This document shows positions 37,678 to 42,933 of a DNA stretch of 64,000 bases, one piece after another. The notes beneath the pieces were generated by a model. That model saw only the letters and a program-made list of their open reading frames with translations, searched no databases and was not told the DNA's origin. Every line of letters starts with the position of its first letter. The stretch's first letter is position 1. Made by a program: the position numbers and the translations under genes. This DNA comes from Candidatus Moraniibacteriota bacterium (GTDB lineage: Bacteria; Patescibacteriota; Minisyncoccia; Moranbacterales; UBA1568), in NCBI GenBank assembly GCA_028711705.1, contig JAQTRS010000002.1, positions 137,617-201,616 on the forward strand. The letters are read 5' to 3'.

Positions 37678-37779
37678 AATAAAAAGATTAGTATCAAAAA
37701 AAATTAAGTCACTCCCTCTTCCAGCTGCCATTACGCACTATTGTAACACGGGCTCGCTGAAAGGCGTTTTTTATACACC

Positions 37780-37808
37780 TTGACAAATCGATCCCAAAAG
37801 TGTATGTT
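37780..37808 (+). promoter_or_regulatory. sigma70 promoter TTGACAAAT-N-TATGTT for the 37891 cassette
   Basis: -35 TTGACA 37780-37785, 17-bp spacer, -10 TATGTT 37803-37808; paralogous to the promoters at 41700 and 42337. Confidence 0.5.
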
Positions 37809-37890
37809 ATGCAGTCAATGGATTCAGCATGAAATTATTGACTGTACCGTTATTTAACAACCTTTTATCATCAGACCGCAAGGAGGTCGC

Positions 37891-38277
37891 ATGAAACAAT
37901 ATCTCCGCATCATAACCGCCGGCACACTCGGGCTCACAACAGCATTTGCCGTCATGGTATTGCTATACGCCATGGCAACCGGCATGCATCGTGGGAAATC
38001 CATCCTCGATGCCAGTGAAGAATCCGTTCTTATTTTCATCGGCATCGCGATCATCACGTCTAGCGGTATCGCTGCAATGGTAATACTGGCGTGCCTCAAA
38101 AAAGCGTGGGAAATCGGATCGGCCTTCACCATGATTCTCGCAGTCGCCGCAGGATTGGCGGAAATTTTGAGCGATCAGTTTTTGCTGATACTCATCATGA
38201 TCGTCGTCGTAGCATCGATCGGCCTTTGGTATTCCTACCAAAAAGCCCTTGCCATCCCTGCGAACAAAAACAAGTAA
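37891..38277 (+). CDS. small polytopic membrane protein (128 aa), cassette C
   Basis: ORF track; AAGGAGGT RBS 4 nt upstream; 4 predicted TM helices; opposite strand to the flanking atp genes. Confidence 0.55.
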   Translation: MKQYLRIITAGTLGLTTAFAVMVLLYAMATGMHRGKSILDASEESVLIFIGIAIITSSGIAAMVILACLKKAWEIGSAFTMILAVAAGLAEILSDQFLLILIMIVVVASIGLWYSYQKALAIPANKNK

Positions 38278-38288
38278 TTCATCCAGCA

Positions 38289-38317
38289 TTTGGGATTCGA
38301 TACCATCCAATCCCAAA
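38289..38317 (+). repeat. conserved stem-loop TTTGGGATT-cgataccatcc-AATCCCAAA directly after the 38277 stop (copy 1 of 3)
   Basis: 9-bp perfect stem; same loop as copy 2 (38714..38742); stem differs by the compensatory pair T..A versus C..G. Confidence 0.45.
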
Positions 38318-38400
38318 GCGCGGGGCAAAATCTCCGCCCTTCGGTCATATCGTAACAAGATACCGAGGGGCGACTTTTCCAATCAACCGAGGAATCTATC

Positions 38401-38700
38401 ATGTCAACCTACACCACCATGCGTGTTTTCAAAATACTGACTTCGAAGGGGAAGACTTATTTCGCTGAGCAAGAAGGGCTTGAAATCCTGCGCAGCCACA
38501 ATAACTTGGAAAGCGTCGCAAGATCCGTCAAGGAAAAACTTGCTACCGCCACAACCTCTATCGATTTTTGCTTCACGCCGTTTCATGATGCGACCGTCGG
38601 GTGCGACGGCAAAACGCTCTGTCACTACAAACCGCTATCAGAACGTGAGAAAACGATCTTCCTAGATGCTCTCTGCTCCGCCGGTAAACCGGCCGAATAA
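38401..38700 (+). CDS. small Cys-containing soluble protein (99 aa), hypothetical
   Basis: ORF track; GAGGAA RBS; followed by the same conserved 3' stem-loop as the membrane-protein cassettes. Confidence 0.45.
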   Translation: MSTYTTMRVFKILTSKGKTYFAEQEGLEILRSHNNLESVARSVKEKLATATTSIDFCFTPFHDATVGCDGKTLCHYKPLSEREKTIFLDALCSAGKPAE

Positions 38701-38713
38701 TTTTCACCCAACA

Positions 38714-38742
38714 TTCGGGATTCGATACCATCCAATCCCGAA
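38714..38742 (+). repeat. conserved stem-loop TTCGGGATT-cgataccatcc-AATCCCGAA directly after the 38700 stop (copy 2)
   Basis: 9-bp perfect stem plus outer CACCC/GGGTG pairing (38704..38752). Confidence 0.45.
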
Positions 38743-38854
38743 GCGTGGGGTGAAGCGCTATCGCCTTTCAATTACTTTTACTTTCACAAAAGCTACTGAG
38801 GGCGATTTTTTAATGTGAAAATTTTCAATTCAAATCGATACTGTTCTTAGTCTC

Positions 38855-38924
38855 ATGACCGTACTATTTTATACGCAACCTTCTTAAGTACTCCAACGGT
38901 TACTTAACAAAATAGTACGGTCAT
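38855..38924. repeat. long hairpin: 16-bp perfect inverted repeat ATGACCGTACTATTTT with a 38-nt loop containing CCTTCTTAAGTACTCCAACGGT
   Basis: Seen in sequence downstream of the atpG stop; loop core matches (22/24) the reverse complement of the loop of the 47075..47145 palindrome. Confidence 0.45.
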
Positions 38925-38963
38925 ACTCAGTCTTTTGTGGTAATTGCTTTTAGTCATCCTTTA

Positions 38964-39917
38964 TCATCCGTTTACCGCTGCCATACCAGCGGAAAGCTCG
39001 GCGATTTCCTGCGTCACTTTCGCCTGGCGGAGCTGATTGTACGAAAGCGTGAAATCGGCGACCATATCCTTGGCGGCATCGGTCGCATTACGCATCGCCA
39101 TCATTCTGGCGGCCTCCTGCGACGCATTGGATTCCAAAATGGCGTGATGGATCTGCATCTCGATCAACCGCGGGATAAGCATTTCCAATACCATCTCCGG
39201 TGTCGGCTCTATCTGATACTGCTTGCGAAGTTCCAAAACATCGGGTTGCCTCGGATGAGACTGCTTCGCAGGCGCATACACCGGCTCATGAGTATCCTCC
39301 ATCTCCCCGATTTCGTCCTGCAAAGCGCCTTGCGACAATGGGAGTAAGCGCCGCACATTCGTCTTCTGGACCATCGGCGAGACATAGTCCGTATAGATGA
39401 GCATCACCTTGTCATAGCACCCGCTCTCATATTCCTCCCGCACCAACCGCGCGATAGGACGGACGCCTGCCGCACGCACCTGTGTGAGCGCATCGGGAAA
39501 GGAGGCCTTGATGACACCCTGGCACTGGCGCAGCAGCTGATCGCCTTTCTTACCGATGGAGACGAAATCGATGTACTCCGGCTTCACGCCCCGCTCTCCG
39601 AATCTCGCCACTTCCTGCTTCACCTGACGGATGATCTGCGTATTGAATGAGCCGCACAAGCCGCGATTGGCAGTAATGACCACGAGCAAGACTCTTTTCA
39701 CCTCGCGTGCCCGGAACAATGTATAATCCTCATCCTTCATCGCTTGGGAAACCTTGGCCAGCACCTGAAGCGCACTTTGCGCATACGGACGGATGGCCAC
39801 CACCTGCGCCACGGCCTTGCGCATTTTGACGGCGGAAATCATCTCCATAGCCCGGGTGATCTTGCTCGTGCTCTTGATTCCTTTTATTCGTTGTTTGAGT
39901 TCTTTGGTTGACGGCAT
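38964..39917 (-). CDS. atpG: ATP synthase F1 gamma subunit
   Basis: ORF track; 317 aa; conserved N- and C-terminal helices (ITRAMEMISAVKMRKA; QEIAELSAG). Confidence 0.9.
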   Translation of the reverse strand: MPSTKELKQRIKGIKSTSKITRAMEMISAVKMRKAVAQVVAIRPYAQSALQVLAKVSQAMKDEDYTLFRAREVKRVLLVVITANRGLCGSFNTQIIRQVKQEVARFGERGVKPEYIDFVSIGKKGDQLLRQCQGVIKASFPDALTQVRAAGVRPIARLVREEYESGCYDKVMLIYTDYVSPMVQKTNVRRLLPLSQGALQDEIGEMEDTHEPVYAPAKQSHPRQPDVLELRKQYQIEPTPEMVLEMLIPRLIEMQIHHAILESNASQEAARMMAMRNATDAAKDMVADFTLSYNQLRQAKVTQEIAELSAGMAAVNG

Positions 39918-40025
39918 AACTATGAGAATTATGAATCAAGAATTTGGAATTAAGCGCTTTGTTCACAAAATCTTTCTTTATAGCAAGCTTGATTCTTTAT
40001 TCTTAATTCCTGATTCCATATATTT

Positions 40026-42032: not shown

Positions 42033-42064
42033 AAAATGTAGTCTCGGTAATTTTCACCCCACAA

Positions 42065-42091
42065 TCAGGATTTGAAAATTCCAATCCCGAA
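42065..42091 (+). repeat. degenerate third copy of the 3' stem-loop (TCAGGATT..AATCCCGAA) after the 42032 stop
   Basis: Flanking TTTTCACCCcAcAaTC aligns with copy 2; stem has one A-C mismatch. Confidence 0.3.
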
Positions 42092-42114
42092 GCATGAGGT
42101 CAAAAAACATAACG

Positions 42115-42160
42115 CCTTCAGCCCCTATTGCAACAGCAATATACTGAAGGTTGTTTTTTT
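42115..42160 (+). terminator. rho-independent terminator CCTTCAG-N22-CTGAAGG + TTGTTTTTTT
   Basis: 7-bp stem plus T-run; a paralogous terminator is at 42784..42830. Confidence 0.6.
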
Positions 42161-42201
42161 ATTTCAAGGAACTTCTCATTGCTCGGCACACCTTTTTCTT
42201 T

Positions 42202-42268
42202 GTCATCCCGAGCGCAGTCGAGGAATCTTTTCCTATCGAGGAGATCCTTCGACTATGCTCAGGATGAC
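42202..42268 (+). repeat. structured element copy 1: outer stem GTCATCCCGAGC/GCTCAGGATGAC enclosing a conserved GAGGAATCTTTTC core
   Basis: Seen in sequence; copy 2 (42851..42917) has a completely different 16-bp perfect outer stem but the same core. Confidence 0.4.
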
Positions 42269-42336
42269 ACAACTATATGTCTTCTTGATGTATACGCTAT
42301 TTATTGCTTTATTAAGCGTATTTTTCTCAGATATAC

Positions 42337-42365
42337 TTGACAAATTGCCAAGTATGGAGTATACT
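42337..42365 (+). promoter_or_regulatory. sigma70 promoter TTGACAAAT-N-TATACT for cassette B
   Basis: -35 42337-42342, 17-bp spacer, -10 TATACT 42360-42365. Confidence 0.5.
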
Positions 42366-42445
42366 GCCCTTTCAGTGAGTTTTGTATTATCGAATGCTCA
42401 TCTGATAATTTAACAATTTTTCAATCACAGATCGAGGAGATCGAA

Positions 42446-42754
42446 ATGAACGCCACGAAAATCACAGAAGCATTATCAATAGCGACACTCGCCGTAACAC
42501 TAGGATCACTACCTCTGATGGATAACACTTTCGGACCAACCATGTCCGAAAGGATGCTACAGCTACTGCTGATTCTAGCATTAACCGCAATCGCAGTGCT
42601 AGCACTGGCATACAATGATGAATACGAATCCAAAGCATTTGCCATTGTGATGGTAATCCTAACAATAGGATTCTCGATAGTTCATTTAGTGTCTTGGTGG
42701 ATTCCATGTATAGTTACGCTCGCGGCAGTAAACCTGCTTTCGCGACATTTCTAA
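42446..42754 (+). CDS. small membrane protein (102 aa), cassette B
   Basis: ORF track; GAGGAG RBS 6 nt upstream; three TM helices. Confidence 0.55.
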   Translation: MNATKITEALSIATLAVTLGSLPLMDNTFGPTMSERMLQLLLILALTAIAVLALAYNDEYESKAFAIVMVILTIGFSIVHLVSWWIPCIVTLAAVNLLSRHF

Positions 42755-42783
42755 CACGAAACATCAGACGATAAAATGCCATG

Positions 42784-42830
42784 CCTTCAGTTATTACTGT
42801 AAACATACAACATACTGAAGGCTATTTTTT
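42784..42830 (+). terminator. rho-independent terminator CCTTCAG-N24-CTGAAGG + CTATTTTTT
   Basis: Paralog of 42115..42160. Confidence 0.6.
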
Positions 42831-42850
42831 ATTGCCAAAGAACTTTCTCC

Positions 42851-42917
42851 TTATCGTTCCGAGTTTATTGAGGAATCTTTTCTTGTAACGGGCTCCTCAG
42901 CAAACTCGGAACGATAA
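42851..42917 (+). repeat. structured element copy 2: outer stem TTATCGTTCCGAGTTT/AAACTCGGAACGATAA enclosing GAGGAATCTTTTC
   Basis: 16-bp perfect stem; core shared with 42202..42268; ends 17 nt before the atpH stop (convergent). Confidence 0.4.
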
Positions 42918-42933
42918 TGTCCACAACCTCATT

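Follow-up and report, generated by a model that had tools for sequence, protein, structure and literature searches.

Few gene arrangements in bacteria are as conserved as the F-type ATP synthase operon. We analyzed a 64,000-nt stretch of a Candidatus Moraniibacteriota genome (contig JAQTRS010000002.1, positions 137,617 to 201,616; hereafter the window), in which this operon is interrupted at two places by small genes on the opposite strand. The genome itself was sampled as this window, and its relatives as 160 atp-centered loci, designated L followed by a number. All eight subunit genes are present on the minus strand and in canonical order, as atpB-E-F-H / atpA-G / atpD-C: atpB (44217-44960), atpE (43846-44109), atpF (43340-43834; Pfam ATP-synt_B), atpH (42934-43335; OSCP), atpA (40026-41522; ATP-synt_ab/ab_C), atpG (38964-39917; ATP-synt), atpD (36265-37731; ATP-synt_ab), and atpC (35795-36265; ATP-synt_DE_N). 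For the c and a subunits, ATP-synt_C and ATP-synt_A were recorded on the identical contig L002. Alignment with relatives places the conserved start of atpD (MNGKIIQ) at 37677. The operon opens into one gap between atpG and atpD (gap A, 37732-38963, 1232 nt) and another between atpH and atpA (gap B, 41523-42933, 1411 nt). An earlier interpretation made from the sequence alone (the sequence-only reading) had described the canonical gene order and its double interruption by opposite-strand modules with unrelated small hydrophobic open reading frames (ORFs). Pfam confirmed the order, and the interruption was borne out, together with the proposed geometry, in which the modules converge on atpH and atpG and diverge from atpA and atpD. 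The three modules that it had counted are all present, but the actual number of plus-strand units is four, two in each gap.

The two gaps differ in layout: gap A contains one promoter followed by two units, each made of an ORF and a 3' module, while gap B contains a tandem pair of complete units, B1 and B2. The 64 kb contain exactly three copies of the motif TTGACAAAT (37780, 41700, and 42337), all of them on the plus strand, where 0.74 would be expected by chance. Each copy is part of a predicted near-consensus sigma-70 promoter in which TTGACA (followed by AAT) is separated by a 17-nt spacer from a -10 box reading TATGTT in cassette A (37780..37808), TACAAC in B1 (41700..41728), and TATACT in B2 (42337..42365), the last matching the consensus at 11 of 12 positions. 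A 61-nt block of the B1 and B2 promoter regions is 77% identical. A possible fourth copy on the minus strand, just past the atpG stop (38938..38922), had poor hexamers and was treated as a remnant.

Transcription starts were placed from the -10 boxes, which delimits leaders that share motifs and end in strong Shine-Dalgarno (SD) sites. The cassette A leader (37815..37890, ∼76 nt, plus strand) carries TTTAACAA at 37853-37860 and the SD AAGGAGG at 37880-37886, flanked by a 4-bp stem (GACC/GGTC) that leaves the SD in a hairpin loop. The B1 leader and ORF (41735..42032, plus strand) include TTAACAA at 41779-41785 and the SD GAGGAG at 41805-41810, and the B2 leader with its ORF o102 (42372..42754, plus strand) includes TTTAACAA at 42409-42416 and GAGGAG at 42434-42439. 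In all three promoter-bearing modules the SD lies 6-7 nt ahead of the start codon. The leaders as a whole fold no better than shuffled sequence (z-scores of -0.36 to -1.47). SD motifs are rare in the window, where a loose scan marked 7 of 51 ORFs and missed o128, the first ORF of gap A, which has AAGGAGG. AT-rich leaders precede the atp genes, whereas AAGGAGG or GAGGAG stands at canonical spacing ahead of the cassette genes.

The promoters and leaders that the sequence-only reading considered shared among the three modules do align at their motifs. The two gap-B modules are paralogous, as it had proposed, with collinear matches even in non-functional spacer sequence. An ATG-to-ACG change that it had noted is also real: the ACG at 41817 aligns with the B2 ATG at 42446, and the module concerned is the one whose promoter starts at 41700. 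At their 5' ends, the modules of gaps A and B resemble each other in motifs only, which may partly reflect an expression grammar common to the lineage.

The four ORFs are mutually unrelated: three encode predicted membrane proteins of 63-128 aa, and the fourth encodes a soluble protein of 99 aa. In gap A, o128 (PHT88_02545; 37891..38277, plus strand) encodes 128 aa with four predicted transmembrane (TM) segments and has a host-like GC content at third codon positions (GC3) of 0.60. It is followed by o99 (PHT88_02550; 38401..38700, plus strand), a soluble ORFan preceded by the SD GAGGAA (38389-38394) and by no promoter of its own, which the sequence-only reading had overlooked. In gap B, the B1 ORF o87 (GC3 0.33; within 41735..42032, plus strand) has in-frame ATGs at 41769 and 41841 in addition to the ACG at 41817; read from ATG 41841, its product has 63 aa and two TM segments. 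The B2 ORF o102 (42446-42754, plus strand) is an ORFan of 102 aa and GC3 0.42, with two strong TM segments and a hydrophobic N terminus (2-3 TM segments in all). Third-position GC of the gap-B ORFs (0.33-0.42) falls below that of host genes (0.52-0.74), and the GC content of gap B is 34-41%; o87 and o102 may be recent acquisitions or young genes.

Pairwise comparison of the three hydrophobic ORFs (o128, o87, and o102) revealed no similarity, and scans of the four small proteins against Pfam, PHROGs, NCBIfam, and PADLOC gave no match. Word-indexed homology searches with o128, o99, and o102 each returned only the query itself. An exhaustive HMMER search linked o128 to a single homologue, P0004, which has 129 aa and is 50% identical (E = 2.6e-27); the second match, P0005, was of low complexity and was disregarded. 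The ratio of nonsynonymous to synonymous substitution (dN/dS) between o128 and P0004 is ∼0.24, with dS near saturation. Because P0004 lies in the equivalent slot of a related genome and the pair shows this ratio, o128 is a real, conserved, and fast-evolving membrane protein gene. An AlphaFold2 model of o99 was unusable (pLDDT 46).

Behind all four ORFs lies a homologous long-stem intrinsic terminator, predicted from a GC-containing stem followed by a U run, and behind three of the four a conserved hairpin that begins at the stop codon (TAATTTTCACCC...); neither element figured in the sequence-only reading. The module after o128 (38272..38385, plus strand) consists of a hairpin at 38282-38325 and a long-stem terminator at 38335-38372 with a weak T run, CTTTTCC (fold z-score -4.4). 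The module after o99 (38695..38817, plus strand) has its hairpin at 38702-38755 and its terminator at 38760-38806, with a T6 run (z-score -5.8), and that of B1 (42045..42166, plus strand) has a hairpin at ∼42053-42100 and a terminator at 42114-42160 with a T7 run. The B2 terminator (42783..42830, plus strand) is homologous to that of B1, and the conserved hairpin upstream of it is missing or degenerate. A covariance model built from the 3' modules (R1) retrieved all four copies from the window and nothing else, scoring 108 bits after o128, 116 after o99, 117 in B1, and 28.5 in B2. The resemblance of the hairpins between the gaps is real homology, with 81% identity over 57 nt.

Selection on this module appears to act on an RNA. 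An alignment of six copies has 89.7% paired cells and compensatory changes at eight pairs; in helix 4, such changes affect 5 of 9 pairs and 90% of cells are paired. The G-U pairs fit an RNA read off the cassette strand. When R1 was run on 80 of the relatives' loci, the module was found in L016 only (92 bits), and a later search added L163 (66 bits). Since these two are the only matches among relatives, the 3' module is restricted to a narrow lineage.

Comparison of related loci revealed what varies between these elements. L163, a 1.5-kb contig from the same SRA sample, encodes P0004 next to an atpD 87% identical to that of the window. P0004 fills the equivalent slot and likewise runs against the atp genes; its promoter reads TTGACAAAT-N14-TATACT, its leader contains the motif TTAAAAAC, and its 3' module is that of the window. 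Compared with L163, the window contains an extra 425 nt, comprising one 3' module and o99; the two gap-A 3' modules form direct repeats that are spaced by the same length. In L016, the window-type promoter, TTAACAA, and the 3' module are kept, but the ORF is an unrelated soluble one of 87 aa, and o99 was rejected as its homologue (E = 0.11). In both relatives TTGACAAAT lies at the orthologous position. Replacement of the ORF alone was seen between L012 and L087: their atp coding DNA is 84% identical, and a 76-nt terminator piece and a 177-nt atpD-proximal flank are 98.7% and 91.5% identical, but the ORF between these flanks is entirely different, encoding a membrane protein of 94 aa in one and a secreted protein of 136 aa in the other. 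L094 and L107 likewise differ by an ORF replaced between conserved flanks. This shows that the non-coding flanks are as conserved as the essential genes, or more so, while the cargo is exchanged.

The units of gap B are bracketed by a further repeated element that had gone unnoticed, a palindrome of 65-75 nt resembling repetitive extragenic palindromes (REPs), of the type GTCATCC(C/T)GAGC...GCTC(A/G)GGATGAC. Copies lie upstream of atpA to the left of B1 (41578..41656), between B1 and B2 (42201..42273; z-score -7.8), and between B2 and the atpH stop (42851..42917; 24-nt arms 92% complementary, z-score -5.6). REP-like palindromes of this type occur in several atp spacers, including another in the window (44125-44195), and near-identical arms are found in atp spacers of L012, L022, L033, L016, L086, and L087. 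Rfam scans of the window, with gathering and E-value thresholds, returned only a tRNA and a chance microRNA-like match on a REP palindrome. In translation, the palindromes give "HPERSRGI"-like pseudo-peptides.

The arrangement is not unique to the window genome and recurs across Moranbacteria-like genomes. We defined Patescibacteria-type loci as those with an atpD at least 70% identical (n = 68) and compared them with the other loci (n = 77). The atpG|atpD gap reaches at least 170 nt in 34 of the 68 Patescibacteria-type loci, as against 12 of the 77 others, and at least 400 nt in 24 of the 68; the remaining half of the Patescibacteria-type relatives have no enlarged spacer at this junction. 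We then scanned 33 enlarged gaps for SD-led ORFs, taken as ATG ORFs of at least 45 aa. Such ORFs lie on the opposite strand in 17 gaps and on the atp strand in 6, and complete units of promoter, SD, and ORF lie on the opposite strand in 11 gaps and on the atp strand in none. The relatives' gap ORFs encode 55-136 aa, often with 2-4 TM segments, and are mutually unrelated. One opposite-strand ORF encodes a PQ-loop-like protein, and one same-strand gap ORF encodes a NUDIX protein. The search of relatives thus did not bring about the refutation that the sequence-only reading had named for itself: they share the architecture of the window, and one of its ORFs is conserved.

Other junctions of the operon are used as well. 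The atpH|atpA junction is occupied less often (∼5 of 51 loci), in some cases with a promoter of the family TTGAC[AT]-N13-GGAGTATAAT (L013 and L095), and the cassette promoter family was found ahead of atpD, ahead of atpA, or around atpB, depending on the genome. In L020 (Moraniibacteriota W4_Combined_metabat1_134), opposite-strand cassettes lie upstream of atpB, between atpB and atpE, and in the atpG|atpD gap; this gap measures 2.3 kb and holds three promoters and two paralogous ORFs of 78 and 72 aa that are 51% identical. In L086, the atpG|atpD gap holds a duplicated fragment of the atpD 5' end (3766-3861) beside an opposite-strand cassette, which hints at a past rearrangement at this junction. 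Dehalococcoidia-type loci carry an ORF of 87-91 aa (MPI[ST][KR]..FE...) between atpG and atpD on the atp strand, at 6858-7121 in L053, at 6585-6848 and 6858-7121 in L066 (two copies), and at 6282-6557 in L049. Literature searches did not find the cassette arrangement described.

We lean toward an explanation in which the spacers are gene-exchange slots for autonomous accessory genes, whose inversion is tolerated because their terminators are unidirectional; we hold it with somewhat more belief than doubt. We directly observed the anatomy of the units, the homology of their flanks, one conserved ORF under purifying selection, the indel of a whole unit, the recurrence in relatives, and the orientation bias. 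The spacer before atpD and, less often, the one before atpA would be recurrent slots in Moranbacteria-like Patescibacteria, each receiving at least one autonomous expression cassette oriented against the atp genes. Such a cassette would consist of a consensus sigma-70 promoter, a ∼75-nt leader with an AU-rich UUUAACAA, a strong SD, a small accessory ORF that in most cases encodes a membrane protein, and a 3' hairpin with an intrinsic terminator. We infer that its promoter is active and that its cargo turns over by recombination through conserved flanks, which comprise the promoter/leader and 3' module of the cassette, the REP-like palindromes, and the highly conserved atp genes themselves. This would account for the gain or loss of whole units, the tandem duplication, and the replacement of the ORF that are seen. 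The small proteins would then be strain-specific accessory envelope proteins and not subunits of the ATP synthase.

The orientation of the cassettes may follow from a property of their 3' ends. Intrinsic terminators act in one direction only, so an inverted cassette should not stop transcription of the atp genes. A strong terminator in the same orientation as the operon would be polar, which most simply explains why inversion is so consistent. The sequence-only reading had concluded that the plus-strand modules split the operon into three units. With unidirectional cassette terminators the operon need not be three transcription units, and minus-strand read-through is possible; a three-unit split would be a deduction from the layout. 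The distance between the atpD start and the -35 box of the cassette is only 21-24 nt in L016 and L163. A promoter of its own for atpD would not fit there without overlapping the cassette, so that atpD would be transcribed either by read-through from atpG or from a start inside the cassette region. An extended -10-like TGTTACAAT at 37747..37739 in the window, read by eye, could be a candidate promoter element for atpD.

Several observations weigh against exchange slots. The promoters, terminators, and start sites of the cassettes are predictions; o99, o87, and o102 have no homologue in the searches made, and the canonical start position of o87 reads ACG. The codon usage of the gap-A ORFs is host-like and gives no sign there of recent horizontal acquisition. 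Breakpoints with diagnostic signatures were not found. The grammar of promoter, TTAACAA, and SD also appears at a few non-spacer sites in relatives, and any preference for atp spacers can be stated only for the sample, made up of atp-centered loci and 64 kb of the window genome. Finally, apart from L163 with its 1.5 kb, the nearest sampled genomes in genome and metagenome scans are distant (atpG at most 54% identical).

Other explanations give the cassettes a role in the operon itself. The promoter could be the functional element, tuning atpDC and atpAG through supercoiling or transcriptional interference, with the ORFs incidental or newborn, as T-rich transcribed spacers would readily give hydrophobic ORFs. 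The L012 and L087 flanks, which outlast their ORF and exceed the coding DNA in identity, fit this proposal, as do the absence of homologues for three of the four window ORFs, the AT-richness and weak codon-position signal of the gap-B ORFs, and the loss of the canonical start codon in o87. A regulatory promoter with incidental or newborn ORFs may apply to the gap-B units. Against it, o128 is conserved with a dN/dS of ∼0.24 and a host-like GC3, and strong SDs are maintained at the correct spacing in an SD-poor genome. Moreover, the promoter element is not required for atp expression, because half of the relatives do without the enlarged spacer. We consider this explanation unlikely overall. A direct role of the proteins, as lineage-specific accessory or assembly factors of the ATP synthase analogous to AtpI or AtpZ, we regard as very improbable. 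Small multi-TM proteins encoded inside the atp operon invite the comparison, neither atpI nor atpZ is detectable upstream of atpB within the window, and small hydrophobic ORFs recur at the equivalent junction in many relatives. However, Pfam, including ATP-synt_I (PF03899) and ATPase_gene1 (PF09527), matched none of o128, P0004, o87, o102, and o99 up to an E-value of 10; the genes lie on the opposite strand, their proteins are unrelated between genomes and replaced between close relatives, and the slots hold soluble and secreted cargo too.

The remaining alternatives see in the cassettes a known kind of module. The sequence-only reading had likened them to type I toxin-antitoxin (TA) or membrane-stress modules, in which hydrophobic peptides are held down by antisense RNA. 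The hydrophobic products, the tandem duplication of B1 and B2, and an SD placed between short complementary arms recall such systems. In addition, each gap-B terminator is overlapped on the minus strand by promoter-like hexamers (42167..42138 and 42838..42809), whose positions are homologous in B1 and B2; RNAs starting from them would be antisense to o87 and o102 at the 3' end. These hexamers are not conserved in L012 or L087, have no equivalent in gap A, and are accompanied by no terminator for such an RNA. The analogy fails on size and topology, as the products have 63-128 aa and 2-4 TM segments instead of a single TM segment in fewer than 60 aa, and on cargo, as the slot also accepts soluble proteins (o99 and the 87-aa ORF of L016), a PQ-loop-like protein, and, in one gap, a NUDIX protein on the atp strand. 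The purifying selection on o128 and its conservation in a relative, leader folds no stronger than shuffled, an SD exposed in a loop and not in a stem, and the lack of Rfam and PADLOC matches add to this, and we judge it improbable. An integron-like array without a nearby integrase, of the kind known as clusters of attC sites lacking integron-integrases (CALINs), in which the 3' hairpin would serve as an attC-like site where a site-specific recombinase inserts or excises units, would explain other features: behind each ORF stands an imperfect palindrome in which an internal loop separates the outer stem from an inner stem with its loop, gap A has one promoter for two ORF-plus-hairpin units, a related strain differs by exactly one unit, and the cargo is ORFan. 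One copy, ACCCAAC...GTGGGGT, even approaches the attC core RYYYAAC...GTTRRRY. Yet the AAC/GTT core is not conserved among five copies (AAC/GTG, AGC/GCG, CAC/ATG, CAC/ATG, and CGC/GCG), extrahelical bases are absent from the inner stem, each of the units ends in a terminator and three have their own promoter, and the G-U pairs indicate selection on RNA structure. Ten neighboring proteins that were scanned are housekeeping, with no integrase among those ten, although CALIN arrays lack an integrase by definition. The 425-nt unit indel is explained equally well by homologous recombination between the 48-nt repeats, which are 90% identical, and we give this explanation little credence, as little as the TA analogy. 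A bolder version of exchange, a dedicated plug-and-play platform for small genes distinct from integrons, would have conserved promoter/leader and hairpin-terminator elements around interchangeable ORFs, units moved by hairpin- or REP-directed recombination, and targeting to the sites before the paralogous atpA and atpD; we regard it as unlikely.

Other features of the window lie beside or outside the cassettes. In the interval between the gap-A array and the atpG stop, a long hairpin (38855..38924) has a perfect 16-bp stem, a 17-nt loop, TTCTTAAGTACTCCAAC, and a z-score of -7.75. A second copy (47076-47146, in the minus reading), with TTTGTTT after it, lies in the space that separates an amidase gene from a divergent gene of 717 aa. 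An ortholog on L163 (1318-1390) keeps the loop with an entirely different paired stem. In this family of two copies in the window, one on L163, and none in the other relatives' loci, the 17-nt loop TTCTYRAGTACTCCARC is conserved while the perfect stems (16, 27, and 20 bp) are wholly different. The loop has 38 viral-contig matches, about the chance number and none within a hairpin, and a search of phage DNA with both gaps gave no match. Around atpA, a 33-nt inverted repeat (39982-40014 and 41533-41565, 85% complementary) flanks the gene, and the AT-rich stretches directly upstream of atpA and atpG resemble each other as a direct repeat (39938-39959). The leucyl-tRNA synthetase (31291-34326, minus strand, 1011 aa) has a NUDIX hydrolase domain (PF00293, residues 439-571, E = 6e-13) inserted directly after its CP1 editing domain.

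The cassettes overturn no established principle, but they indicate that a highly conserved operon tolerates repeated inverted insertions of small genes, turning over between close relatives, across a lineage of the candidate phyla radiation. At least one real, conserved, and unannotated family of small membrane proteins, o128/P0004, is among the cargo. If exchange slots are the correct explanation, they would provide a tractable example of small membrane proteins acquired or born in minimal-genome episymbionts, and the orientation of a terminator would decide what an operon tolerates inside it. They would also offer compact, portable expression signals (promoter, AU-rich leader motif, SD, and terminator) for organisms without genetic tools.

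Several known systems share part of this anatomy. Like AtpI and AtpZ, the cassettes contribute small multi-TM proteins within the atp gene cluster, but their genes are dissimilar in sequence, lie on the opposite strand under their own promoters, and are not conserved among relatives. Split atp operons are known from cyanobacteria and chloroplasts (atp1/atp2) and from alphaproteobacteria (atpHAGDC apart from atpBEFF'). As there, the beta-epsilon block (atpDC) is parted from the rest, whereas in the window the blocks stay adjacent and in canonical order, parted only by 1.2-1.4 kb of inverted cassettes. Repeated type I TA modules, such as the long direct repeats ldr/rdl and ibs/sib of E. coli or txpA/ratA of Bacillus with its 3'-overlapping antisense RNA, resemble the cassettes in their short length, intergenic position, and tandem duplication; their promoters are likewise strong, their products hydrophobic, and each module has its own terminator. 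The atp cassettes differ in their larger products, with several TM segments or soluble, in their heterogeneous cargo, and in an SD that is not sequestered. With integron and CALIN arrays they have in common small ORFan genes ending in imperfect palindromes, a single promoter serving gap A, and strain differences of whole units; they lack the conserved AAC/GTT core, have their own terminators and often promoters, and end in a hairpin that is RNA-like. Chromosomal gene-exchange hotspots known as flexible islets are flanked by core genes. As in these islets, the flanks of the atp slots are common to genomes while the cargo differs, being gained, lost, or replaced between relatives; part of it (gap B) is atypical in composition, and the slot contains no mobility genes. 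Unlike them, the atp slot sits inside an essential, normally contiguous operon, and each of its units is one small gene, systematically inverted, that has its promoter/leader and 3' module in common with the others. Altogether, the atp slots are best filed as a variant of core-gene-flanked exchange hotspots, unusual in their site within an essential operon, their shared regulatory modules, and their strict inversion.

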